DNA of 64,000 nucleotides, from positions 487,269-551,268 of the forward strand of contig CAVYGG010000005.1 in the NCBI GenBank assembly GCA_963768045.1, read 5' to 3'. This DNA comes from an uncultured Actinomycetota bacterium. GTDB lineage: Bacteria > Actinomycetota > Actinomycetes > Propionibacteriales > Nocardioidaceae. This document shows positions 4,469 through 20,042 of the stretch, piece after piece. How positions within the stretch are numbered: the first letter of the stretch is position 1; each line of letters starts with the position of its first letter. Position numbers and translations under genes: made by a program. The notes beneath the pieces were generated by a model. That model was not told where the DNA came from. It saw only the letters and a program-made list of their open reading frames with translations, and ran no database searches.

Positions 4469-5431
4469 TCAGGAGCCTGCGGGGGTCCTGGTCGCCCTCG
4501 CGTAGCGGTCCGAGAGCACGCGTAGGTGGTCGACAAGGGCGGGGGGACCGGTCACCGAGAAGTCCAGGCCCAGCATGCCGATCCAGACCGCGATTACCTC
4601 CACGCTGTCGCCGCCGGTGACCAGGACCGACTCGGTGTCGGACACCGCCTCGACGGTACCGACCGCGGGGTTGATCCTCGCCAGCACCTCCTCTGCGGCG
4701 GCGTGAACGGGGATCCGCGAGTGCACCGCCCATCCGGTGCGCGCCACCTCGCGCACGACGAACTCGGTCAGGTCGCCCGGGAACGGCTGCGGGGCGAAAC
4801 GGCGTCCGCCGGGAGTGCGCATTCGCAGCCAGTCAACCCGGTACGGCGCCCACCCGCCGGTCGCGGGGTCGCGGCCGACGAGGTACCAGCGCCGCTGCCA
4901 GCCGACCAGGTGGTAAGGCTCGATCACGCACGTCTCGTCGCGGTAGTGACAGCGCAGCCCTTGGTGGTCTCGGATCGCTGCGGCCAGCTCGTTCAGTTGC
5001 TCCGCCTCGACCACGGGATCCTCGACGTTGGAGTCGGTGTTGACCGGACCGGCGCTGGTCGCCACGCGGAGGGCCGCCAGTCGGTGACGTAGCCGGTCGG
5101 GCAGCACCTGTTCCAGCTTGGTGAGCGCTCGCCCTCCGCTCTCCTCGAACCCTGCCATCCCGGTGGCGGCGCGGAGGCCGACGACGACGGCTGCGGCCTC
5201 TGCCTCGTCCAGGAGGAGTGGCGGCATCTTGGCGCCGACGCCGAGGCGGTAGCGGCCGCCGCGTCCGCGGATCGCGTCGACGGGGTAGCCGAGGTCCCGG
5301 AGGCGCGTGACGTCGTTGCGCACCGTGCGGTCGGTGACCGCCAGCCGGTCGGCCAGCTCCGCCCCGGACCAGTCGGCACGGGACTGCAGCAGGCCGAGGA
5401 GGGCCAGCATGCGGGCGGACGTGTCGCGCAC
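4469..5431 (-). CDS. HTH-WYL domain transcriptional regulator (YafY/PafB-like)
   Basis: GTG start with AAGGAG RBS; SGAELADRLAVTDRTVRNDVTRLRDLGYP HTH_11; IEPYHLV...RRWYLVG...YRVDWL WYL motif. Confidence 0.92.
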   Translation of the reverse strand: MRDTSARMLALLGLLQSRADWSGAELADRLAVTDRTVRNDVTRLRDLGYPVDAIRGRGGRYRLGVGAKMPPLLLDEAEAAAVVVGLRAATGMAGFEESGGRALTKLEQVLPDRLRHRLAALRVATSAGPVNTDSNVEDPVVEAEQLNELAAAIRDHQGLRCHYRDETCVIEPYHLVGWQRRWYLVGRDPATGGWAPYRVDWLRMRTPGGRRFAPQPFPGDLTEFVVREVARTGWAVHSRIPVHAAAEEVLARINPAVGTVEAVSDTESVLVTGGDSVEVIAVWIGMLGLDFSVTGPPALVDHLRVLSDRYARATRTPAGS

Positions 5432-5493
5432 GGCGTACTCCTTTGCGATCCATCTGTGGCGTGATGACGGAGGTGCCAGGGTCTCGAGAATAA

Positions 5494-5510
5494 CGGAACG
5501 AAACGTTCCG
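5494..5510. promoter_or_regulatory. Perfect inverted repeat CGGAACG-AAA-CGTTCCG, candidate operator of the WYL regulator
   Basis: Lies in the divergent intergenic region between the WYL regulator and the epoxide hydrolase. Confidence 0.55.
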
Positions 5511-5562
5511 GAATTACTCATAGCGTCCTCTCTACCAGGCCAAACGAGACAGGAGACGCACC

Positions 5563-6699
5563 ATGAGCAGCACCACGACAACCCCCGAGATCCGCCCGTT
5601 CCGGGTGGAGTTCCCGCAGGCCGACCTCGACGACCTCGGCGAGCGCCTAGCGCGGACCCGGTATGCGCCGGCGGCGCCCGGCGACTCCTGGGACTACGGG
5701 ACGCCGAAGTCCTACTTGCGCGACATGGTCGAGCGCTGGAAGGCGTTCGACTGGCGTGCGGTCGAGGCCAGGATCAACGCCCGCCCGAACTTTCTGACCG
5801 AGATCGACGGCCAGACCATCCACTTCGTCCATGTGCGTTCCGAGGTCCCGGACGCGAGGCCGCTGTTGCTAGCGCACACCTATCCGGGCTCGTTCCTGGA
5901 GTTCCTCGAGATGATCGAGCCGCTGACCGACCCGGTCGCCCATGGTGGTCGGCCCGAGGACGCGTTCCATGTCGTGGTTCCGTCGGTCCCGGGCTTCGGC
6001 TTCTCCACTCCGGTCGTCGACGGCAGCTGGACGATGGCACGGGTGGCCCGCGCCTACGACTCGCTGATGCGCCGGCTCGGCTACGACTCATACGGCACGC
6101 ACGGCAGCGACGGCGGCGCCATGGTCTCCCGCGAGCTCGCGGTGCTCGATCCCGAGGGGTTCCTCGGCGCTCACGTGCTTCAGCTGTTCTCGTTCCCGAG
6201 CGGCGCGCCCGGCGAGATGGACGCCTTCGGCGAGAAAGAGTACGCCGCGCTCGCCCACCTGCAGTGGTTCCAGAGCGTGGGCGGCTACAACAGCATGAAC
6301 GCCACCCGGCCGCAGACCGTCGCTGCCGGTCTGGCGGACTCGCCCGTTGCCGTGCTCGCTTACAGCGAGCTGTTCGAGAACTTCGGCAACGGCACCAGCC
6401 TGGTGCGGCCGGAGCAGGTCCTGGCGCAGGCCACCCTCTACTGGTTGACCAACACCTACGCCACCGCGGCTCGCTACCACTACGAGGAGCAGCGCGCCGT
6501 GCCCGAGCCTGCCGTCAGCCAGGGCCGCATCGGTGTGGCCGTGTTCAAGGACGACTTCCAGACGATCCGGATCCTCGCCGAGCGGGACAACGCGAACATC
6601 GCTCACTGGTCAGAGTTCCCCCGCGGTGGGCACTACGCCGCCCTCGAGGTGCCTGATGACGTCGTCGCCGACCTGAGAGCGTTCTTCGCCCGGGCCTAG
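5563..6699 (+). CDS. Epoxide hydrolase (EHN N-terminus + alpha/beta hydrolase)
   Basis: IRPFRV..DLDDL.ERL EHN start; HTYPGS (HGxP variant); GSDGG nucleophile motif; GGHYAALEVP catalytic His; RBS GGAG. Confidence 0.9.
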   Translation: MSSTTTTPEIRPFRVEFPQADLDDLGERLARTRYAPAAPGDSWDYGTPKSYLRDMVERWKAFDWRAVEARINARPNFLTEIDGQTIHFVHVRSEVPDARPLLLAHTYPGSFLEFLEMIEPLTDPVAHGGRPEDAFHVVVPSVPGFGFSTPVVDGSWTMARVARAYDSLMRRLGYDSYGTHGSDGGAMVSRELAVLDPEGFLGAHVLQLFSFPSGAPGEMDAFGEKEYAALAHLQWFQSVGGYNSMNATRPQTVAAGLADSPVAVLAYSELFENFGNGTSLVRPEQVLAQATLYWLTNTYATAARYHYEEQRAVPEPAVSQGRIGVAVFKDDFQTIRILAERDNANIAHWSEFPRGGHYAALEVPDDVVADLRAFFARA

Positions 6700-7056: not shown

Positions 7057-7100
7057 ATGCATCAGCCGAGCCCGAGCCCTAGGAAGGAATGGAGCGCGCG

Positions 7101-8027
7101 ATGACCGATCCGTTGTCCATCTGGCGGGAGGGTGCCGCCAAGGAGGCCATCCTCGGTTTCGTGGAGCAGACCTGCACGGAGGGCTCCGCCGGCTGGGTGC
7201 CGGTCGAGGAGCGGGTCGCCGTCTTCGACAACGACGGCACGCTGTGGTGCGAGAAGCCGATGCCCATCCAGCTCGACTTCGTCCTGCGCCGGCTGGCCGA
7301 GATGGCCGTGGGCGACCCGACGCTGCGCGACCGGCAACCGTGGAAGGCCGCCCACGAGCGCGACTATGCCTGGCTGGCGCAGGTCATGACGGAGCACTAC
7401 GCGGGCGACGACACCAACGTGAAGACGGTCGGGGCCGGCATCGTGGCGGCGTTCGCGAACATCACCGTCGACCAGTTCGAGGCGGACTCCCTCGAATTCC
7501 TGCGCAGTGCTCGGCACCCCACGTTGGACCGCGGCTACCTCGAGTGTGCGTACGCACCCATGCTCGAGCTCCTCTCGCACTTGAGGGCCAGCGGCTTCAC
7601 GAACTACATCGCCTCGGGTGGGGGTCGCGACTTCATGAGGCCGATCAGCCAGCAGGTCTACGGCATTCCCAGGGAAGGCGTGATCGGAAGCGCTGTCGCA
7701 CTCGCCTACATCCCGGACGAACGAGGGGGCGCCATCACCCGCCAGATGGTCGCCGACCACCTAGACGACGGTCCGGAGAAGCCGGTTCGCATCTGGACCC
7801 GCACCGGACGACGTCCCGTGCTGGCAGCCGGCAACTCCAACGGCGACATCGAGATGCTCGACTTCACCCAGCACCCGGACAAGCCCTCCCTGCGGCTCCT
7901 GGTGCTGCACGACGACCCCGAGCGGGAGTTCGACTACGTCTCAGGAGCGGAACGAGCCCTCGACCGCGCGGCCAGCAGCGGCTGGACCGTCGTCAGCATC
8001 AAGAACGACTGGGCCACGGTGTTCTGA
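7101..8027 (+). CDS. HAD-superfamily hydrolase (nonspecific acid phosphatase type)
   Basis: Motif I AVFDNDGTLWCEKP, motif II IASGGG, Lys motif GPEKP, motif IV GNSNGDIEML. Confidence 0.9.
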   Translation: MTDPLSIWREGAAKEAILGFVEQTCTEGSAGWVPVEERVAVFDNDGTLWCEKPMPIQLDFVLRRLAEMAVGDPTLRDRQPWKAAHERDYAWLAQVMTEHYAGDDTNVKTVGAGIVAAFANITVDQFEADSLEFLRSARHPTLDRGYLECAYAPMLELLSHLRASGFTNYIASGGGRDFMRPISQQVYGIPREGVIGSAVALAYIPDERGGAITRQMVADHLDDGPEKPVRIWTRTGRRPVLAAGNSNGDIEMLDFTQHPDKPSLRLLVLHDDPEREFDYVSGAERALDRAASSGWTVVSIKNDWATVF

Positions 8028-8066: not shown

Positions 8067-11000
8067 TCACGACTCCGACGCGTCCACTAGGTGTGGCACG
8101 CCGACGTCCTGGGTGAGGAGCTCCGGCGTGATGTGCTCCAGTCGGGCGCAGCCGGCCAGTCGCATGGTCGTCGTGAGCTCCTGATCGAGCAGGTTGAGCA
8201 CCCGCGCCACGCCCCCCTGCCCGTTGACGGCGAGGCCCCACACGGCAGGCCGACCGATCATCACGGCGTCGGCGCCCAAACCCAGCGCCTTCAGCACGTC
8301 GGAGCCTCGCCGAACACCACCGTCGACGAGCAGGGCCATGCGGTGGCCGGCAGTGTCGAGCGCTCGCCGGGCGCCCCGCAGCGCCTCGAGCGGCGCCGTC
8401 GCCACGTCCAGCTGCCGGCCTCCGTGGTTGGAGATGACGACGCCGTCATACCCCTCCTCAGCCGCATGGAAGACGTCCTCCTCGCGGAGGACTCCCTTGA
8501 GCCAGATCGGCAGATCGGTCTGCTGGCGCAACCAGGCGAGCCCTTCCCAGGTCATGGCCGCGTCCTTCATCGTCTCGAAGCGCAGGAGCGGTGACCGCGA
8601 TGCCAGCCCGACTCCGTCGAGATGCGGGAGATGGACCTGGCTGTCGAGCGCGAACCCATGGCGCATGTCGGTCTCCCGACGCCCGGAGACCGGCGCGTCG
8701 ACGGTCACCACCAGGCCGTGGAACCCCGCCGTGCGGGCGCGGTCGACGATCGTCGTCATCAGGTCGTGGTCGCGGAGGGGGTAGAGCTGGAGGAGGAGCG
8801 GCGCCGTCGATCCCACGAAGGCCTCCGCCACGTCCTCCAAGGAGGTCGTAGACAAGAAGGAGAGCACCATCCCGTGCCCCAGCCGCGCAGCCGCTCGCGC
8901 GGTGGCCAGCTCTCCCTCGGGGTGGACCAGCCGCTGCATCGCGGTGGGGGCGATCAGGATCGGCGAGGAGAGGGCCCGCCCGAGGAGTCGGGCCTCGGTG
9001 GAGACCGTCTCGACGTCGACGAGGACGCGGGGGCGCACGTGCAGCCAGCCATACGAGGCGCGGTTCCGCGCCAGGGCCTGCCCGTCCTCGGCTCCGCCCG
9101 CGAAGTAGTCGAAGATCGGCGCCGGGAGGACGGCCCGAGCGGCCTCCTCCATGTCGTGGAGGTTGAGCACCTGATCCGGCGTACTCGACGGTGCGCCCAC
9201 CCCCTCCACCGTGCGTTGCGCGTGCACCGGGCGGTGCGCGCGAACGACCTGACCCTCGAGGACCGACGCCCCCCGCTCCACGATCGCGAACGGCCCCACG
9301 TGGGCGCCGCTCTCGACGGCCGTCGATCCGAACCGGAGGGAGTGGTGCTCGATCGAGTGCCCGAACATCTGTGACTGATGCTCGAGGATGACACGGTCGC
9401 CGACGCTCTTGAGGTCGTACTCGCTGCCGAGCGACGAGGCCAGCAAGCATGTCCCACGGCCGACCCGGGCTCCCATCGACCGCCACAAGACGGTCAGGAA
9501 CCAGGTCCCCTGAAGTTGGGTCAGGAACGCCGCCTCCGCATCCATCACCACGGTCTCCACCAGCAGCCACCGCGTGTAGGCCCAGCCGTACGCCGGGTGC
9601 TCGCCGGCGCGCACGCGCCCCAGGACGACCCACTTGAGCAGGGGAACGCAGGCGACCTTGACCAGTCTCGGGACCAGCAGCAGCGCGGGCAGCAGGACCC
9701 ACAGGGCGGTGGTCGGCACTGCACCGACGAGCCCGTTGGCCACCGCGCCCATCAGCACGAAGCCCGCGACGTCCACCCCGCCCACAACCAACCACTGCAG
9801 CAGTGCCAAGGCGGTCTGATTGCGCGCGTACTGCACCGAGCTCACGCGGTCCGGGCGTAACGAGGCCCGGCCCACCACCCGCGGTGGCGAACCCACCGCG
9901 ACCGAGCCCCGCGGGATCACATCCCCGCCTCCGGCGACGCTCAGGTCGCCCAGGAGCGAGCCCGCGGACACCTCCGCACCGCAGAGGAGCACGCACGAGT
10001 TCGCCACGATCGCATCGTCGCCGATCCGCACCCCGGCGCTCGCTCCCTCGGCTCCGCGTGTTCCCTCCGCCTGATCGAGGGCGTACACGGCGACGTTCCC
10101 GGCGACCATGCCCCGGTCGCCGATCTCCAGCAGGTCGGGTTCGGCGGTGTAGGGCGCAGCCAGGAACGGCCGGACGCCGACTCGGGCGCCCAGGAGCCGG
10201 TACCACCAGCGCATGGGGTGGGACATCACGTTGAGCCGCAGGAACATCGCGAAGAACGGCACGTCGACCAGTCGCGCGTATACCCATCGGCTCCAGTCGG
10301 CCTCCCTCGGCAGCATGCGCTTCACGACGACGACGAGGGCGAAGTAAGCCGCCGGGATGATCACACGCAGTGCGAGAGCGGCGGCCGCGAAGAAGGACAG
10401 CGCGGCCGGCGAAGTGGACCTTCCGAGCAGCAGGTCGGCTACCGACGGCATTGCTTGGCCGAGCGCGTCGACCGTAGTGGTCACGAAGAGGATGCCGACG
10501 GCGGCGGCCAGGCTCACGAGGTAGCCGACCAGGACGAACGCCGCCACCTGCGCGCCCACGCCCGGTACATATCGTGCGGACGGCGCGGCCGGCCCGCCCG
10601 CGGCCACGCGATCGTCCACAGCCGCAAGGGGCGTCACGCTCGCGCCGGCGTCGACGACAGCGCCGCCGAGCAGGGTGCTGTGGGCGCCAATCGTGCAGCC
10701 GGCCCCGATCTCCACCGGCTCGACCACGAGCCGGCCTCCTTGTGGACGACCGGGCAGCACGGTCACGTCCCTGCCGACGACGGTGCCGTCGCCGATCGTG
10801 ATCTCCTTCATGTCGTGGAGCGCCACAGATTCCACGCGAACCTTCCTCCCGATCCGCGCGCCGCCGAGCCGGTAGAACGCCGTGAGCGCACCGGTCCCTC
10901 GCAGGACTCCCAGCTGGGCCTCGACGGCGCGGAGGGTCTGGCGCGCGAGCAGCCAGCGGAAGTATGACGGACTCCACAGGTCGGCCTGCCCTCCGGGCCG

Positions 11001-13619
11001 GGGGGCACGCCCCAACCTGACAAGCACAACGGCCGCGGCCATCGTCACGAGGAGCACACATGCGAGCCACCCGGGTCCCAGCAGGAGCAGCTCGAGGGCG
11101 GACAACCGGCGCGCGGCGAGCTCGAACGTCACCAGCGCGGGCACGAAGCCGACCGCCAGGAGCGAGGGCCGCACGAGCAGACCGAGCAGCTGGAGCACCA
11201 TCGCTGACACGGACGTGGCGGACGTCGCCTCGGGAGGCGGGTCGGGCTCGGTCCGGGGCCCGGTCTGGGGCCCGGTCTGGGGCCCGGTCTGCGGCCCGCT
11301 GGGCGCCTGAACGGCCGCGAGCCCGTCGAAGTAGACACCGAGTTCCCGGATCGTCGGGTGGTCGTAGAACAGAGTGGGTGGCACGGTGGTTGCGAACCGC
11401 TGCTCCAACTGCTCGATCAGCTCGAGCGTGCCCAAAGAGTCGAGTCCGACGTCGAACAGCGGCCGGTCGTCGTCGACATGCTGCGAGGTGACGATCGCGA
11501 AATAGGCACGCACGAGCGCTGCCACAGCGCCGCCTGCGGTCGCATCAGCGGCCGCCGGGACATCGGCTGCGACCGGGTGGTCCGGCTCCACCGGAGCACC
11601 GGCCAACCGGTCGCTCAGCTGCTGCTTCTGGACCTTGCCCGTCTGGGTCCGGGGCAGCTCGTCAACGAAGTGGACGCGCCGAGGCACCTTGAACCCGGCC
11701 AGGAGCGCACGGCAGCGCGCCTTGACCTTCGCAGCGTCGGGCTGGGCGCCGTCCCGGACGACGGCGATCTCGACCACCTCACCGAGGACCGCATGTGGTA
11801 CGGCGAAGGCCGCGGACTCCCGGATGCCGTCGATCCCGTCGACCACCTGCTCGACCTCCCAGGCGAACACGTTCTCGCCACCGACGTCGATCATGTCTTT
11901 CCGGCGCCCGACCACGTGCACGCACCCCGCATCGTCCAATGACCCGAGGTCGCCGCTGCGGTAGTAGCCGTCGGCGGTGAACACCGCGGACGTGCCGATG
12001 TCGATTCGCCCGTCGGAGAGGTAACCGCTGAACACCGTCTCGCCCCGAAGCACGATCTCGCCGACCTGCCCGGTAGCGACCTGCTGGTCCTGGCCGTCGA
12101 CGATCCGCACCTCGAGGCCAGGCAGGACCCGCAGTCCCCGCTTCATCGGCTCCTGGGTCTCCACCTTGAAGGCGACGTGGCAGGTCGCCTCGGTCATGCC
12201 GAACCCCTGGATGACGTCGCAGTCGAACAGCGTGGCAACCCGGTGGACCATGGCTGGGTCCGGGGCCGCTCCACCGGTCAGCACCCACCGAAGCGCCGGG
12301 AAAGTCAGGCCCTTGAGGCGGTCGGAGTCGCACATGAGCTGGAGCATCGACGGCACCAGCTTGACGATCGTGACCCCTTCGGTGGCCACCATCTCGCCGA
12401 CCTCGTCGTACCGGAGCTGGTTCTCATGGAAGACGTGCCGCGCGCCGATCAGCATCGCGATCCACACAAAGGCCGCGTCACCCACGTGGAACATCGGACC
12501 GAAGTGACCCCAGCAATGCTGCTCGTCGGCGCGCAGCCCCAGTGCGCGGATGGTGGCGAACGAGTGGGCGACCACATTGTGGTGGGTGTGCAGCACCATC
12601 TTGCTGCGGCCGGTGGTCCCGGATGTGCCGAAGCCCTGCACGTATGACGCCGGGCGGGCCGGCGGGTCGACGTCCCGATCGGTGCCCGGATCAGCGGCCA
12701 GGAGCGAGTCCCATGAGCGTTGGTCCTCGACCGGGACCTCCACCGGCGCGGTTGTCCACACCAGTGTGCGTACCGGCAGATCGCTCCAGGGAAGCGCCCG
12801 AAGGGTCTCGGCGAAGGCGTCGGACGTGACCAGGACGGACACGCCGCCCGCCCGGAGTCCTGCCTCGATCTCGCTTGCCGACAACCGATGATTGAGCGGG
12901 AAGACGATCGCCCCGGTCGTGGCGGCGACAAAGAACAGCTCCATGGCGATGTGACTGTTCGACAGCAGCACCGCGATGGTGGGCTGTTGCCCCGTCACCT
13001 CCCGGATCTCCCGGAGCTGCGCTCGCAGGGACGCCGCAATCCTGGCCACCCGGTCGCGGCACTCGGCGTACGAGATCCAGGCTCCACCGACCTCGTAGGC
13101 CGGCCGGTCGGCATGCTCTCGGCACGCGATCTCGAACAGTTCGGCCAGATCGGTCCTGCCCGTCGGCGCCCACGGCAACAGCCTGTCAAGCGATAGCGAC
13201 TCGACACGTGCCGGCGCGTTCCGCTCGCGCAGCCGGCGGGCCAGCAGCATGGCCATCGCGCGGTTGAACCGCGCGGCAAGGGCTGGGTCACCGTCGAGCA
13301 GCCGGCGCAGCGGAGCCTCCGGGATCCGCAGCACGCTGGCCGACCCATCCGATGCTCGAAGGGTGGCCGAGGCCGCCCGACCCTCGAGCAGCGACATCTC
13401 GCCGACGATCTCACCGCCAACGACAAATCCGACGGGCTCCTCGATCCCGTCAACGGTCACACACAGCTCGCCGTCTAGGACGAGGAAGACCGCTCCCGGG
13501 TGACGGCCCTCCACGATGAGCGCGGAGCCCTGAGGCAGCTCCTCCCGAGTGCCCAGACGCATCAGGGCGTCGATGTCGGCGTCCGTGAGGGCCCCGAAGA
13601 CGTAAAGGACTTCCGTCAT
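8067..13619 (-). CDS. 1850-aa NRPS-like protein: cNMP-binding + adenylation (acyl-CoA-ligase-like) + carrier domain + three Pls-type TM/beta-helix modules + FMN-dependent alpha-hydroxy acid oxidase
   Basis: cNMP: LIVEG..VFLVLDGEL..GEIVGEMSLL..ASATLRA. A domain: GTSGTTGRSK, PMFHV, QGFGMTEA, YRSGDLG, RRKDMI..GGENV, LPRTQTGK. T domain: FDVGLDSL. Three 'RxxGARxG' beta-helix repeats separated by TM pairs, plus LKWVVLGR..GEHP. FMN domain: FDYFAGGA, APTA, TVDAP, LKGV, SNHGGRQLD, DGGVRRGSD, GRP. Confidence 0.88.
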   Translation of the reverse strand: MTEVLYVFGALTDADIDALMRLGTREELPQGSALIVEGRHPGAVFLVLDGELCVTVDGIEEPVGFVVGGEIVGEMSLLEGRAASATLRASDGSASVLRIPEAPLRRLLDGDPALAARFNRAMAMLLARRLRERNAPARVESLSLDRLLPWAPTGRTDLAELFEIACREHADRPAYEVGGAWISYAECRDRVARIAASLRAQLREIREVTGQQPTIAVLLSNSHIAMELFFVAATTGAIVFPLNHRLSASEIEAGLRAGGVSVLVTSDAFAETLRALPWSDLPVRTLVWTTAPVEVPVEDQRSWDSLLAADPGTDRDVDPPARPASYVQGFGTSGTTGRSKMVLHTHHNVVAHSFATIRALGLRADEQHCWGHFGPMFHVGDAAFVWIAMLIGARHVFHENQLRYDEVGEMVATEGVTIVKLVPSMLQLMCDSDRLKGLTFPALRWVLTGGAAPDPAMVHRVATLFDCDVIQGFGMTEATCHVAFKVETQEPMKRGLRVLPGLEVRIVDGQDQQVATGQVGEIVLRGETVFSGYLSDGRIDIGTSAVFTADGYYRSGDLGSLDDAGCVHVVGRRKDMIDVGGENVFAWEVEQVVDGIDGIRESAAFAVPHAVLGEVVEIAVVRDGAQPDAAKVKARCRALLAGFKVPRRVHFVDELPRTQTGKVQKQQLSDRLAGAPVEPDHPVAADVPAAADATAGGAVAALVRAYFAIVTSQHVDDDRPLFDVGLDSLGTLELIEQLEQRFATTVPPTLFYDHPTIRELGVYFDGLAAVQAPSGPQTGPQTGPQTGPRTEPDPPPEATSATSVSAMVLQLLGLLVRPSLLAVGFVPALVTFELAARRLSALELLLLGPGWLACVLLVTMAAAVVLVRLGRAPRPGGQADLWSPSYFRWLLARQTLRAVEAQLGVLRGTGALTAFYRLGGARIGRKVRVESVALHDMKEITIGDGTVVGRDVTVLPGRPQGGRLVVEPVEIGAGCTIGAHSTLLGGAVVDAGASVTPLAAVDDRVAAGGPAAPSARYVPGVGAQVAAFVLVGYLVSLAAAVGILFVTTTVDALGQAMPSVADLLLGRSTSPAALSFFAAAALALRVIIPAAYFALVVVVKRMLPREADWSRWVYARLVDVPFFAMFLRLNVMSHPMRWWYRLLGARVGVRPFLAAPYTAEPDLLEIGDRGMVAGNVAVYALDQAEGTRGAEGASAGVRIGDDAIVANSCVLLCGAEVSAGSLLGDLSVAGGGDVIPRGSVAVGSPPRVVGRASLRPDRVSSVQYARNQTALALLQWLVVGGVDVAGFVLMGAVANGLVGAVPTTALWVLLPALLLVPRLVKVACVPLLKWVVLGRVRAGEHPAYGWAYTRWLLVETVVMDAEAAFLTQLQGTWFLTVLWRSMGARVGRGTCLLASSLGSEYDLKSVGDRVILEHQSQMFGHSIEHHSLRFGSTAVESGAHVGPFAIVERGASVLEGQVVRAHRPVHAQRTVEGVGAPSSTPDQVLNLHDMEEAARAVLPAPIFDYFAGGAEDGQALARNRASYGWLHVRPRVLVDVETVSTEARLLGRALSSPILIAPTAMQRLVHPEGELATARAAARLGHGMVLSFLSTTSLEDVAEAFVGSTAPLLLQLYPLRDHDLMTTIVDRARTAGFHGLVVTVDAPVSGRRETDMRHGFALDSQVHLPHLDGVGLASRSPLLRFETMKDAAMTWEGLAWLRQQTDLPIWLKGVLREEDVFHAAEEGYDGVVISNHGGRQLDVATAPLEALRGARRALDTAGHRMALLVDGGVRRGSDVLKALGLGADAVMIGRPAVWGLAVNGQGGVARVLNLLDQELTTTMRLAGCARLEHITPELLTQDVGVPHLVDASES
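11250..11297. repeat. 4 x 12-bp tandem repeat encoding a (GPQT)3-GPRT linker
   Basis: GGTCCGGGGCCC/GGTCTGGGGCCC/GGTCTGGGGCCC/GGTCTGCGGCCC, between the T domain and the first TM segment. Confidence 0.9.
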
Positions 13620-15517: not shown

Positions 15518-16597
15518 TCAGTGTCGGTCGACGAAGAGGACTTCGATGGCGTTGTTTCCGTAGCCCAGCCGGTTCCACGGTGGGACGTCGGGCTGCACGT
15601 TGTCGGCAGCGTCGGTCGCGCGCGCGCGGAGGGTGTGGCGTCCAACGTCGTTGCTGTCCCAGACGAATGACCAGTCCTGCCATTGGTACGGCCCCTTCGG
15701 CGGGTCCAGCTGCGCTGGGTGCCAGTCACCCTCGCCGGTGAGGCTGATGTCGACCTGCGTCACCGGCCCGGTGCCCGACCAGGCTTTACCCCGGATCGTG
15801 TAAGGCCCCATGGGCAGGATGGCCTCGGGAGTGGGGTCGGTGATGCGGGCCCGGACACGCATGAGGCTCACCGCTTCGTGAGGGCGATCCGGCCACTCGT
15901 AGACATAGTGGCCGGTCTGGAACTCGCCGATGAACGGCTCGGTGAGGACGTCGATCCGGCTGAGCCACTTCACCGAGGCGACGGCGTACCAGTGCGGAGC
16001 GATGATCCGAAACGGTGCGCCATGATCGGGCGTCAACGGTTCGCCGTTCATCTCATAGGCGACCAGGATCGCCGAGGAGGGATCGGCTGCCTGGGCGAGG
16101 GGCAGCGCGCGGACGAACGTGAGGTCGCTCTGGTTGGTGTTCGGGAGGATCGCCTGCAGGTGGTACGGGCCGTGATCGGCACCTTCGAAGCGGACGTCGA
16201 CCCCCGTCTTCGCCGGCTGGGCCAGCGCGAGTACGTCGCTCAGCCGGGCACCGGTCCACCGTGCGGTCGACACGGCGTAGTCCCCCCACGGTTCCCCGGT
16301 CGGAAGCGGTCTCATGTCCAGGCGCCCGTTGCCCGCACATTCCAGAGTGACCGCCTGCTCGCGGGCCGGCATCGAGCGAAGGTCATCGAGGGTCAGCGTC
16401 ATGGGCTTGCCCACGGCACCGCCGATCTCCAAGGAGCCGTCGTGGGTGGGCAACGCGAAGTTGCTGCGGATGTAGTGGAGCGCGGTGGGCGTGATGTCCC
16501 CCACCAGAGCTTCGGGCGGCGCCTCGGCGTTGTACGGAGCGGGATTGATCATCTCCAGTGCGGCGCGTGCCGACTCGAGATCGCTTGCGGCGGTCAT
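15518..16597 (-). CDS. Sulfite oxidase-family molybdopterin oxidoreductase
   Basis: HYIRSNF, TLECAGN (Mo-ligand Cys), AYEMNGEPL..DHGAPFR, SVKWL; Ig-like dimerisation tail ARATD..QP..WN. Confidence 0.9.
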   Translation of the reverse strand: MTAASDLESARAALEMINPAPYNAEAPPEALVGDITPTALHYIRSNFALPTHDGSLEIGGAVGKPMTLTLDDLRSMPAREQAVTLECAGNGRLDMRPLPTGEPWGDYAVSTARWTGARLSDVLALAQPAKTGVDVRFEGADHGPYHLQAILPNTNQSDLTFVRALPLAQAADPSSAILVAYEMNGEPLTPDHGAPFRIIAPHWYAVASVKWLSRIDVLTEPFIGEFQTGHYVYEWPDRPHEAVSLMRVRARITDPTPEAILPMGPYTIRGKAWSGTGPVTQVDISLTGEGDWHPAQLDPPKGPYQWQDWSFVWDSNDVGRHTLRARATDAADNVQPDVPPWNRLGYGNNAIEVLFVDRH

Positions 16598-16644
16598 GGG
16601 CTCGGTCTTCCTCTCGATTGGTCGTGGTCGCTGGCGCTCTCGCC

Positions 16645-17505
16645 TCAGAAGTCGGCGTCGTCGAAGCTCGGTTCGCGGCCGTCGTTGAAGGATCCGATTC
16701 CTTCGACGCGGTCGGGGTGGACAGCCGAGCGCCAGTGGGCGTCCATCATGATGGCGATGGCCTGCTCGATCGGCTGGCCTTCGCCCAGGTGTACGGCGCG
16801 TTTCACCGACTGCACTGCCGTGGGTGAGTTGCCTGCGATCGTGTCCGCGATGCGCCGGGCGGCGAGCATCAGCTCAGCCGCAGGATGGATCTCGTTGACC
16901 ATGCCGAGACGGTAGAGCTCCTGCGCCGGAACGGGCTCGCCGGTCATCAGCATCTGCAGGGCCTTGCCGCGGGGGAGCAGGCGTGGCAGCAGAGCAGGCG
17001 ACCCGCCGCCAGCGGCGAGGCCGAGCATGGCTTCGGGTTGTCCGAATGTCGCCGTCTCGGAGGCGATGATGAAGTCGGTGCTCTGGGCCAGCTCACAGCC
17101 ACCGCCGTAGGCGATTCCGTTGACCGCAGCGAAGATCGGCTTGCGCAGCTGACGCACGGTGTAGAGGGTGCGGTCGAACGCCTGGCGTTGTCGCAGCCAG
17201 TCCTCCTTGGTCATGGCCCTGCGTTGTCGCAGGTCGCTGCCGACGGAGAAGGCTCGGTCACCGGCTCCGGTCAGGATCACGACCCGGACGGCGGTCCGCA
17301 CCGCGATCGTCTCCACGATCTCGGTGAGGAGGGCGCCCATCTCGGTGGTGATCGCGTTGTCGGCATGGGGTCGGTTGAGGGTGACCACTGCCACCTGGTC
17401 GCCCTCGAGGTAGTCGAGGAGAACGGGGGCCTCGGTCTCGACGATGTCTGGCGGGGGTGGTCCGAAGTCGAGGGCCTTCCATCGGTCCGTACCGGATGTG
17501 CTCAT
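16645..17505 (-). CDS. Enoyl-CoA hydratase/isomerase family protein
   Basis: TLNRP, RAFSVGSDL, AVNGIAYGGGCELA, FGQPE. Confidence 0.92.
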   Translation of the reverse strand: MSTSGTDRWKALDFGPPPPDIVETEAPVLLDYLEGDQVAVVTLNRPHADNAITTEMGALLTEIVETIAVRTAVRVVILTGAGDRAFSVGSDLRQRRAMTKEDWLRQRQAFDRTLYTVRQLRKPIFAAVNGIAYGGGCELAQSTDFIIASETATFGQPEAMLGLAAGGGSPALLPRLLPRGKALQMLMTGEPVPAQELYRLGMVNEIHPAAELMLAARRIADTIAGNSPTAVQSVKRAVHLGEGQPIEQAIAIMMDAHWRSAVHPDRVEGIGSFNDGREPSFDDADF

Positions 17506-17548
17506 CGCTGTGCAGTCCTCTCGTCGTTCCGGCGGTTCATATGTCCTG

Positions 17549-18889
17549 TCACGTGTCCAGCTCTGCCAGCCAGCGCATGGCCTGGAGACCGGGCGCGAAG
17601 AAGTACTCCCCGCCCCGTGTCACCACGAACGGCGGCAGGTTCTGCAGCTTGCGACGGATCGGTCGCGTGGGGATGGTGAAGCCGCTCGACCCGTCGTTCG
17701 GTCCAACGAGGGGGTCCTTTTCGAGCGGGGCCCCGATGAAGATGCCGTCGTTGAGCCATTGGGTCTTGACGAACTCGAACTGGCGCTTGAGGTGCGCTCC
17801 GGCGAACACGAAGATGATCCCTCGGTCCTCGCCGTCGTCCTCGAGCACGCCCGGGGGCAGCATGGGTCCGTAGCTCGTGCCGCGCCGGATCATCCGGTGC
17901 AGTCGGACGTCCACGCTGCCGTCCATGTCCATGGCGTCGCGCGGGTTGGCCCGTCGAGCGTGGGCACCGACCGGGCACTTGAACCCGCGGGGGTCATCGG
18001 CAAACAGGAAGTCGTTGTTGCGCTGCGCGTCGGCACCGAGCCCGGGGTCATCGCGGAACGGTGCTAGAGCGAGCGGAGCACCGCTCTGCCAGCGACCGAC
18101 CATCTTCGCGCCGAGGAGGTCCTCCTCCTCGCGGCTTGCCGCCCGGTCGCGCAGGTAGCGTCGGTAGGCCGCAACCTTCGTGTGCAGCTTCCGGAAGACG
18201 ACGTAGGTGCCGTTGCGACCAAGAACTTCCGGGGTCGGCATCGGCGGCAGCTCACCGGTCTCGTCGGGATAGCCGAGGATGATCTCGCCCGCCTTGAGGG
18301 GCCGCTCGCGTGGACTCGTCGAAGGCCTCCCGGTGCCCTCGACCGCGGGCTGACCGATGCCGTCCTTGAACCCGAAGGAGGTCCGTCCGCTGGCGAGCTG
18401 GTAGCAGTCCTGGCGCCAGACCACCTCCAACCCCGGTAGCTCGGTGTGGGCGCGGCGGGCCTTCTCGGCTACAGCCTCGAGCTCAGCAACGTCAGCGGAC
18501 AGAGCGGCGATGGCCACGTGCACGTCGGCACTCCCGAGCGGCGGCTCCCACTGCTCTGGGCTGCTCTCACCTACGTCTCCCAGCAGGGCGGCGCGCGCTG
18601 CCATCCCGTCGCGGAACTCGGGAGCAAAACTGTCCAATGACGCCTGCGGGACTCCCAGAGCCTCGAGACCGTGGTAGCTGAACCCCACGGTGAGCGTCGT
18701 GTCGTCCTCCGCCTTGGAGGTCTGCGCGTCGGTGGCGATGCGATGCAGCCTCCGGACGAGCTCCCTGCCGTCGGCGCGGTCCGCGATACGCAGTAAGAGA
18801 TAGGTGCCGACGTACGGCGAGGGACGCTCGAACAGTGCTCCTGCCTGGATGTCGTCGAGCTCAAGGTGGGGACTGGTCGCCTCGACCAT
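17549..18889 (-). CDS. DyP-type heme peroxidase
   Basis: LDDIQ start, FGFKDGI (GxxDG), AHARRANPR proximal His, IRRG distal Arg, RGGEYFFAP. Confidence 0.9.
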   Translation of the reverse strand: MVEATSPHLELDDIQAGALFERPSPYVGTYLLLRIADRADGRELVRRLHRIATDAQTSKAEDDTTLTVGFSYHGLEALGVPQASLDSFAPEFRDGMAARAALLGDVGESSPEQWEPPLGSADVHVAIAALSADVAELEAVAEKARRAHTELPGLEVVWRQDCYQLASGRTSFGFKDGIGQPAVEGTGRPSTSPRERPLKAGEIILGYPDETGELPPMPTPEVLGRNGTYVVFRKLHTKVAAYRRYLRDRAASREEEDLLGAKMVGRWQSGAPLALAPFRDDPGLGADAQRNNDFLFADDPRGFKCPVGAHARRANPRDAMDMDGSVDVRLHRMIRRGTSYGPMLPPGVLEDDGEDRGIIFVFAGAHLKRQFEFVKTQWLNDGIFIGAPLEKDPLVGPNDGSSGFTIPTRPIRRKLQNLPPFVVTRGGEYFFAPGLQAMRWLAELDT

Positions 18890-18911
18890 GGGTGTGAGAT
18901 GCCTTCCGTCG

Positions 18912-20042
18912 CTAGTGGTGCTCGGGGGGCTCGGGCGGGTGCTGGTTGGGCGGCGACAGGTAGGGGAACGTGTCGCTCGCCGGGCGGGTGGCTGAGTCGA
19001 CACCGTCGCGGACGGTCGGGCCATGTCCGCCGTTGACGAGCTGGGTGAAGACCGTGTCCATCACGTCGTCGTTCAAGGTCCGTCCCCCGCAGGTCTGGTG
19101 CGGTTCACCACGTCGTGCCGCGAGCTCGATCTCGAGGAACGAACCCTGCTCGACGTAGGGCTTGGTGACGTCGACGACCAGGAAATCGGCCAGGACCAGG
19201 TCCGTCAGGGGGTGGTTGCCGTTCTCGTCCGGCGGCCAGTCCACCTTGCCGTCCAGGCCGTCCCAGAAGGCGAGGTTGGCGTTCAGCCGCGCGCGGTAGG
19301 CACCTCCGTAGGAGTCGCCCAGGTGGAATGCGTCCTCCATGTTGTAGAGGTCACGGATCTCGAGGTCCCGGTTCACCTGGTCGAACTCCTTCGAGGCGAG
19401 CATCATGTTCTTCACCTCGGGTCGCCCGACGCGTTCGATCCGTACCTTGACCGTGCCTCGTGTCAGCGTCTCTGCGACGACACCGAGGAGGCCGGAACCA
19501 CCCAGCAGCCGCGAGTCGATCTCGATCACGAGGCTCAGGACGTTCTTGCCGTCCAGAAAGATCGAGCCGGGATCGGTGAACGCCAGCTCGTGGGTCGCGA
19601 GGGTCGTCAGCGCCGCCCGAGCGTCCATGATGAACGGATCCCAGCGCGCGCCGGCGAAGACCCGCATGCCGCCGCCGGACCCTCCGTCAGGATCGTTCAC
19701 GCGGAACGAGACCCTCTCTCCGGTCGAGGAGGTGCAGGTGCCTTCCTGTGTGGGCTCGTCAGCGGTGGGATCCGGGGAGGAGAAGACGCAGTCGAGGACG
19801 TACTCGTCGTCGGTGGGGACGAACCGCCAGCCTTGACCGCCCGATGCCGGCCCGTTGAGTGGTCGCAGCCTGAAGCGGTAGAGGAGTCCCTTCGAGAACA
19901 GGTCGGAGGGCTTGGCCATCGGCAGCGTGTTCACGACGAGCACGAGACGATCCGCGTGTCGGGGGCTCGGGAAGGCGTACACGTCGGTGATGTCCGCGAT
20001 CGGGTCGGCGATGGCGCGCGGCCCGGAGATGTGGTCCGACAT
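18912..20042 (-). CDS. DUF4331 family protein
   Basis: MSDH..P..DP.ADITDVYAF N-terminus, VFAG..DPF, ERVGRP, GRTLNDDVMD, FPYL..P. Confidence 0.8.
   Translation of the reverse strand: MSDHISGPRAIADPIADITDVYAFPSPRHADRLVLVVNTLPMAKPSDLFSKGLLYRFRLRPLNGPASGGQGWRFVPTDDEYVLDCVFSSPDPTADEPTQEGTCTSSTGERVSFRVNDPDGGSGGGMRVFAGARWDPFIMDARAALTTLATHELAFTDPGSIFLDGKNVLSLVIEIDSRLLGGSGLLGVVAETLTRGTVKVRIERVGRPEVKNMMLASKEFDQVNRDLEIRDLYNMEDAFHLGDSYGGAYRARLNANLAFWDGLDGKVDWPPDENGNHPLTDLVLADFLVVDVTKPYVEQGSFLEIELAARRGEPHQTCGGRTLNDDVMDTVFTQLVNGGHGPTVRDGVDSATRPASDTFPYLSPPNQHPPEPPEHH

Follow-up and report, generated by a model that had tools for sequence, protein, structure and literature searches.

The gene described here lies in a 64,000-nucleotide stretch of DNA (hereafter the window) from an uncultured Actinomycetota bacterium of the Nocardioidaceae (assembly GCA_963768045.1, contig CAVYGG010000005.1, positions 487,269 to 551,268 of the forward strand). 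By sequence comparison, its product is a membrane synthetase of a distinct, uncharacterised sub-clade of the known Pls/PosA scaffold and not of a new class. In a tree of the Pls-type region, this clade is monophyletic with respect to Pls (Shimodaira-Hasegawa-like approximate likelihood ratio test, SH-aLRT, 100). Three traits always co-occur in it: an acyl-type adenylation (A) domain, a Pls domain that is divergent, and a 2-hydroxy-acid dehydrogenase at the C terminus. A first-pass annotation of this DNA had proposed a candidate new synthetase class; the separate clade without a described counterpart stands, but it branches within the Pls/PosA scaffold. Neither a characterised protein nor a report on the combination of a cyclic nucleotide monophosphate (cNMP)-binding fold, adenylation-thiolation (A-T) module, Pls domain, and hydroxy-acid dehydrogenase was found in the searchable literature, in line with the novelty first claimed. 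Public annotations of the homologues read only "alpha-hydroxy-acid oxidizing protein" or "NRPS-like" (NRPS, nonribosomal peptide synthetase).

The gene, its reading frame, and the clade

The gene and its domains are listed below with window coordinates and the evidence used to place them; FMN is flavin mononucleotide.

8067-13619 (-), whole open reading frame (P0001), a single-gene unit of 1850 aa (open reading frame list, Shine-Dalgarno, contig tiling)
13224..13613 (-), CAP/cNMP-fold domain, residues 3-132 (PF00027, 47.1 bits; TIGR03896, 88.8 bits)
11634..13136 (-), acyl-CoA-synthetase-type adenylation domain, residues 162-662 (Pfam, NCBIfam, alignment motifs)
11340..11486 (-), carrier (thiolation) domain, residues 712-760 (PF00550, 53.7 bits)
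9180..11228 (-), Pls/PosA-type polymerase/transferase domain, residues 798-1480 (TIGR02353, hydropathy, AlphaFold2)
11001-11228 (-), transmembrane pair 1 (hydropathy)
10590-10982 (-), beta-helix C1 (part of the Pls-type domain)
10308-10571 (-), transmembrane pair 2 (hydropathy)
9825-10292 (-), beta-helix C2 (part of the Pls-type domain)
9621-9812 (-), transmembrane pair 3 (hydropathy)
9180-9617 (-), beta-helix C3 (part of the Pls-type domain)
8112..9140 (-), FMN-dependent (S)-2-hydroxy-acid oxidase/dehydrogenase domain, residues 1494-1836 (PF01070, 392.3 bits)

The frame at 8067-13619 (-) reads through 1850 codons without any stop, as first reported, and a GGAGG Shine-Dalgarno sequence lies 9 nt 5' of the ATG at 13619. 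Pfam domains follow in the order cNMP_binding (26-109), AMP-binding (162-534), AMP-binding_C (588-662), PP-binding (712-760), Hexapep, and FMN_dh (1494-1836). The source genome is a metagenome-assembled genome (MAG; 3.26 Mb in 5 contigs, 81% complete) with one copy of the synthetase, and such an assembly could in principle join neighbouring genes through an assembly or gene-calling artefact. The stretch is also present in soil and rhizosphere metagenomes of seven studies, and short-read contigs from four studies, 95-99% identical, span every domain junction with 0 gaps. The CAP/A junction (~nt 13200) is bridged by X1 13045-13619 and X7 12407-13247, the carrier/transmembrane junction (~nt 11280) by X5 11174-11510 and X7 11262-11936, and the C3/FMN_dh junction (~nt 9140) by the X7 record 8576-9832. 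The same domain order recurs in ~55 independent homologous protein clusters of a 5.8-billion-sequence collection, including two homologues with 82-83% identity over 100% of the window protein. Because independent contigs bridge the junctions and ~55 clusters share the architecture, an assembly fusion, and with it a stop or frameshift between domains, is vanishingly improbable and is effectively excluded for this reading frame. RNA runs were sought among the public runs that hold the stretch, and none was listed.

One X2 contig, from a relative 90-95% alike, carries a 2-nt insertion and a 1-nt deletion at window positions 13221-13226, in the linker after the CAP-fold domain. These are either an error or a frameshifted allele of a related strain.

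The clade ranges over soil Actinobacteria-like MAGs, Gemmatimonadota, Proteobacteria, and Symbiodiniaceae. The clade is rare: among ~185,000 prokaryote species, with one genome per species, we found 17 loci, all in MAGs (Gemmatimonadota, Arenicellales, Alpha- and Gammaproteobacteria, Burkholderiaceae). Searching 1.84 billion representatives with a profile gave about eight full-length representatives at 50% clustering, plus fragments; these fragments resemble contig-end truncations and were the only candidates for split forms in that search, which was not aimed at shorter forms. Homologues at 33-34% identity are annotated in the Symbiodinium and Effrenium genomes. Closer to the source organism, none of 24 congeneric species genomes holds an orthologue, and 3 of the 24 hold ordinary Pls-type genes of ~1350 aa.

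Domains of the synthetase

From the window alone, the first-pass annotation had described an acyl-type A domain (PMFHV, no Asp of the SFD motif), a carrier with an intact serine, a Pls-like core of A-T followed by three transmembrane/beta-helix modules, and a complete FMN alpha-hydroxy-acid oxidase/dehydrogenase with the motif SNHGGRQLD. All of its motifs were located (PMFHV at 375-379, GLDSLG at 725, SNHGGRQLD at 1730), and each of these domain assignments held up in the comparisons below.

The A domain contains TSGTTG, HFGPMFHVGD (GPMFHVGD begins at residue 374), GFGMTEAT, GRRKDMIDVGGENV, and TGKVQK. These correspond to the marks of ANL acyl-CoA synthetases, namely TSGTTG, PxFH, GYGxTE, GRxKD..GGxN, and the catalytic Lys in PxTxxGK, and the amino-acid-activating NRPS set (FDxS Asp, YGPTE, GRxDxQVKIRG) is absent. 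We aligned the A domains of 55 family members and 16 canonical Pls-type proteins: HFGPMFHVGD, GYGMTEAT, and GRxKDMIxVGGENV are found in 55/55 family members, whereas the canonical proteins keep FDxS, YGPTE, and GRxDxQVKIRG. In another 25 Pls-type proteins checked for these motifs, YGPTE was present in 24 and acyl-type PxFH/GYGMTE in 0. From these motifs, we infer that the A domain activates a carboxylic, non-amino acid. The best NCBIfam matches are long-chain fatty-acid-CoA ligase models, and the nearest solved structures are feruloyl-/fatty-acyl-CoA synthases (8weu/8wev), malonyl-CoA synthetase, FadD13, and oxalyl-CoA synthetases, at similar distances. Lys420 is invariant in the clade, at a position where Pls types carry Ser or Cys, and His372, His378, His481, and Lys485 are likewise invariant. 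These residues hint at an anionic side group on the substrate, which would probably bear a second anionic group since the invariant Lys and His lie in pocket-forming segments. In the carrier domain, the GLDSLG serine (Ser728, nt 11436-11438) is conserved in the family, and the source genome encodes a phosphopantetheinyl transferase.

Residues 770-1495, scanned alone, match TIGR02353 (Pls/PosA terminal domain) with an E value of 1.6e-48 in 3 stretches. Hydropathy places three transmembrane pairs at ~798-873, 1017-1104, and 1270-1333, so that the A-T module is followed by a domain of ~700 aa with six transmembrane segments in three pairs and three beta-helical segments, as in the family definition. 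The membrane domain is not the last one, as FMN_dh (1494-1836) comes after it. An AlphaFold2 model of residues 785-1490, built from a 32-sequence alignment, is compact (predicted local distance difference test 88.9, predicted template modelling score (pTM) 0.90), and in it pairs of long helices are interspersed with three beta-helical segments of short strands. It matches ESM-Atlas clusters named Pls/PosA with a TM-score of 0.80-0.84 over 661-685 residues. The model is also in line with what was published for PosA from AlphaFold, namely six bent helices beneath three beta-helices packed like trimeric sugar-nucleotide acyltransferases (PMC10522769).

Neither sequence nor fold search found a solved structure of the whole Pls-type domain, because the PDB yields only weak matches (E ~1e-3) to single hexapeptide acyltransferases. 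The beta-helix matches are O-/N-acyltransferases with CoA or ACP thioesters as donors (LpxA, maltose and galactoside acetyltransferases). Like LpxA, LpxD, the maltose/galactoside O-acetyltransferases, and serine acetyltransferase, the window protein would pack three hexapeptide beta-helices as a trimer with a general-base His, and these enzymes set a precedent for the chemistry of moving an O-acyl group off a phosphopantetheine thioester. Unlike in those enzymes, the three helices are in one chain and are split by transmembrane hairpins. His1421 (nt 9357-9359), Glu1424, Asp1402, Asn1207, and Lys1329-Trp1330 are invariant in both the clade and canonical Pls; these shared residues therefore suggest that C3 holds a catalytic centre in common with canonical Pls.

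Pls (Streptomyces albulus; epsilon-poly-L-lysine) and PosA (Acinetobacter baumannii; delta-poly-L-ornithine) share with the window protein the A-T module followed by a ~700-residue domain of three transmembrane pairs and three left-handed beta-helices (PMC10522769), as well as the C3 His, Glu, and Asp, and all are stand-alone genes with no condensation or thioesterase domain. Unlike Pls and PosA, the window protein has an A domain of the acyl-CoA-ligase branch without the amino-binding Asp, a Pls domain in a separate clade and far below the family cut-off, and a 2-hydroxy-acid dehydrogenase after the membrane domain, with an N-terminal CAP-fold domain added in some clade members.

P0155, P0163, and P0183 are long Pls-type proteins with at least one classical condensation domain before the membrane domain, and one of them has a second A-T module (orders C-A-T-Pls and A-T-C-A-T-Pls); the scaffold therefore has more partners than the characterised homopolymer synthetases show. 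A plant (Streptophyta) cluster in the ESM Atlas, of 796 aa with catalase and hexapeptide repeats, aligns to residues 275-698 of the Pls-type domain model with a TM-score of 0.53, and may be a further fusion of a redox enzyme to part of the Pls scaffold.

The C-terminal domain covers positions 1-349 of the 350-position PF01070 profile (392.3 bits). Its identity to plant glycolate oxidase, human HAO1, and 4-hydroxymandelate oxidase is 38-43% (41% to spinach glycolate oxidase 1gox, TM-score 0.94), and Foldseek with a 1066-residue model returned glycolate-oxidase-type matches only. With these enzymes, LldD, and lactate oxidase, it shares the full TIM barrel and all catalytic and carboxylate-binding residues: all 47 family members compared have Tyr1505, Tyr1613, Asp1641, Lys1708, His1732, and Arg1735, and at least 90% have Arg1647. 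Because the residues that hold a free alpha-carboxylate are retained, the substrate is predicted to be a free 2-hydroxy-carboxylate end. Unlike the free FMN oxidases, this domain is the C-terminal part of a membrane synthetase and has Leu1589 at the position of glycolate oxidase Trp108. Trp108 limits the plant enzyme to small substrates.

When the Pls region alone was used as the query, every match above 430 bits ended in FMN_dh or, in four clusters, in Ldh_2, and the next matches (at most 180 bits) were ordinary Pls proteins. The Ldh_2 domain of P0031 scores 436.6 bits against a cut-off of 336 with the equivalog model of YbiC-type "malate/lactate/ureidoglycolate dehydrogenase" (NF007504). The tree of the Pls-type region places the Ldh_2 group inside branches that bear FMN_dh (99, 98, 94). 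Judged by this nesting, FMN_dh has been replaced once, in one sub-clade, by the NAD(P)-type Ldh_2 known from E. coli YbiC, which is unrelated in fold and cofactor, has the same chemistry, and is absent from the window protein. This swap is the strongest evidence in hand, and 2-hydroxy/2-oxo-acid conversion is therefore likely integral to the function of the clade.

The N-terminal domain is genuine by fold, as judged by a PF00027 score of 47.1 bits against a gathering threshold of 27.5. Its cassette is GEMSLLEGRAASAT, with Ala83 in the position of the phosphate-binding Arg; in HMMER alignments, the Arg of Thermus thermophilus Crp (4ev0) and that of PycTIR (8jsj) both fall on Ala83. All domain-bearing family members have Ala, Thr, Val, Ile, or Asp in place of this Arg, and one sub-clade of them additionally lacks the cassette Glu. 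The domain is missing entirely from about half of the family, including two of the four major clades, the Ldh_2 group, and all eukaryotic members. The first-pass annotation had the synthetase switched by a cyclic nucleotide, and this part of it is not supported, because the Arg is missing family-wide and half of the family is without the domain. The domain is better seen as a putative optional sensor than as a canonical cAMP/cGMP switch.

Proposed chemistry and its alternatives

Because the clade appears to activate a non-amino carboxylic acid and always carries a 2-hydroxy-acid dehydrogenase, it probably makes an ester-linked product. For the window protein, we tentatively favour an ester-forming, probably iterative oligo- or polyester synthetase acting on a hydroxy acid with an anionic group. 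This reading draws by analogy on fungal polymalate (PMA) synthetase of Aureobasidium, an A-T-six-transmembrane, NRPS-like protein in which a hydroxy-dicarboxylic acid is activated and joined through ester bonds (PMC11286673, PMC11905612). The likeness, taken from the literature description alone, lies in the A-T-six-transmembrane layout and in the sole known use of the scaffold on a non-amino acid; in contrast to the window protein, PMA synthetase has not been reported to carry a fused dehydrogenase or a sensor domain. P0104 from Mycena was considered as a PMA synthetase relative and rejected, being an A-T-C protein without transmembrane pairs.

In the proposed mechanism, the A domain would adenylate a carboxylic (non-amino) acid and load the protein's own phosphopantetheine arm. 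The pseudo-trimeric beta-helix domain, with its conserved His/Glu pair in C3, would then move the acyl group onto the hydroxyl of a free acceptor. Repeated transfer would give an ester-linked oligomer or polymer that exits via the transmembrane part, as proposed for Pls and fungal PMA synthetase. The C-terminal dehydrogenase would convert the monomer, the acceptor, or the free end of the chain back and forth between its 2-hydroxy and 2-oxo forms, and would couple synthesis to redox state or cap chains, with the N-terminal CAP-fold domain as an optional sensor. Polyester synthesis together with oxidation of the monomer or chain end, as first suggested for this protein, is plausible. The wider claim, that bacterial and dinoflagellate membrane synthetases of this clade make a hitherto undescribed anionic, polymalate-like polyester or oligoester by a thiotemplate route, with the built-in dehydrogenase setting monomer supply or capping ends, is one that we regard as doubtful for now, if attractive.

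Several observations weigh against an iterative polyester synthetase. The TIGR02353 score is 165.6 bits against a curated cut-off of 423.1; because it is so far under the cut-off, the polymerase domain counts as divergent, and its role may not be iterative coupling. The specificity of the A domain cannot be read off its sequence, because the nearest solved A domains are all similarly distant, and Lys420 is presumed to be a pocket position by the Stachelhaus positions. The model places FMN_dh against the transferase with only moderate confidence (pTM 0.67). The main difficulty is the direction of the dehydrogenase. FMN_dh enzymes usually work in the oxidising direction, which does not fit simple monomer supply and makes the FMN domain an unlikely source of the hydroxy-acid monomer; the reason for the fusion is left unexplained.

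The divergence of the Pls domain would also suit a single-turnover acyl transferase, which would pass one acyl group (e.g., fatty or aromatic) to a membrane or exported acceptor or to a 2-hydroxy acid, with the dehydrogenase controlling the acceptor pool. The fatty-acid-CoA ligase models among the NCBIfam matches and the 8weu/8wev synthases as top solved relatives point the same way, and LpxA and LpxD transfer once from acyl-ACP. However, the invariant basic residues in the pocket segments suit a plain fatty acid poorly, the characterised proteins with six transmembrane segments and three beta-helices are all iterative polymerases (PMC10522769), and the obligatory dehydrogenase is left without a reason. 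We consider this alternative unlikely, though a serious one.

Oxidation is the one direction that FMN_dh and the NAD(P)-linked Ldh_2 could share, and the dehydrogenase might instead make the acid to be activated (2-oxo acid from 2-hydroxy acid, or oxalate from glyoxylate hydrate), with an amine or hydroxyl then receiving the 2-oxoacyl or oxalyl group from the transferase. The closeness of the FMN domain to glycolate oxidases (41% identity), the malonyl- and oxalyl-CoA synthetases among the nearest solved A domains, and the cationic invariant residues, which would suit a small dicarboxylate, fit such a scheme. Yet the A domain is no closer to the oxalyl-/malonyl- than to the fatty-acyl/feruloyl ligases, Leu1589 replaces the Trp that confines plant glycolate oxidase to small substrates, and monomers of this kind have no nucleophile, leaving the polymerase-type domain unexplained; we rate this scheme as rather improbable. 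Finally, an ordinary cationic homopoly(amino acid) synthetase of the Pls/PosA kind with extra domains would account for the TIGR02353 match and the Pls-type fold, but it is effectively excluded by the missing FDxS Asp, by acyl-ligase versions of ANL motifs A4, A5, and A8 in all members where canonical relatives keep the NRPS versions, and by the split from Pls at SH-aLRT 100.

Genomic neighbourhood and significance

Neighbour look-ups and an all-against-all flank comparison of 21 loci found no shared biosynthetic partner genes. The neighbours are not conserved, and the enzyme therefore appears self-contained, as Pls is. In the sub-clade without the CAP-fold domain, a STAS-domain (anti-sigma-antagonist-like) gene lies directly 3' of the synthetase and could serve as another kind of regulatory partner. 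At three loci, each from a different MAG, a gene for a Ser/Thr protein kinase is found no more than a few kb away from the synthetase.

L014:4998-5381, L015:7279-7653, L018:3555-4103, L019:2130-2540, STAS-domain gene downstream of the synthetase
L003:15651-17438, L005:6119-7774, L007:1-1923, Ser/Thr protein kinase gene

In a Pseudomonadota MAG (L001:6239-16334), the homologue P0026 lies between a full guaA and a duplicated GMP_synt_C fragment of 76 aa, with M78 peptidase and HNH genes coming after the duplication. The locus looks like an island inserted at the guaA 3' end, consistent with horizontal spread.

In the window, the gene is flanked on its 3' side by a convergent HAD-like hydrolase gene, with an epoxide hydrolase gene and a WYL/helix-turn-helix regulator gene beyond it; none of these three is kept beside homologues in the flank comparison. 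Window positions 15518-20042 (-) hold an unusual set of co-oriented genes, whose Pfam assignments were confirmed.

4469-5581 (-), WYL/helix-turn-helix regulator
5563-6699 (+), epoxide hydrolase
7089-8027 (+), HAD-like hydrolase, convergent with the synthetase
15518-16597 (-), sulfite-oxidase-type molybdoenzyme (Pfam)
16645-17505 (-), enoyl-CoA hydratase (Pfam)
17549-19024 (-), DyP-like protein (Pfam)
18912-20042 (-), DUF4331 protein (Pfam)

To our knowledge, the characterised bacterial enzymes on the Pls scaffold all make cationic poly(amino acids), and fungal polymalate synthetase is the one known exception for the scaffold. In the present clade, an acyl-type activating domain has been swapped in and an obligatory redox domain added. 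This pattern suggests a class of products, probably ester-linked, that has never been looked for. The exchange of FMN_dh for Ldh_2 amounts to a clean natural experiment on 2-hydroxy/2-oxo-acid chemistry in the clade. As a single self-contained gene, the synthetase is directly testable by heterologous expression, and it is attractive as a one-gene biopolymer catalyst. If the polyester reading is true, the clade would provide the first prokaryotic example of an NRPS-like polyester synthase that is not related to the polyhydroxyalkanoate (PHA) synthases.

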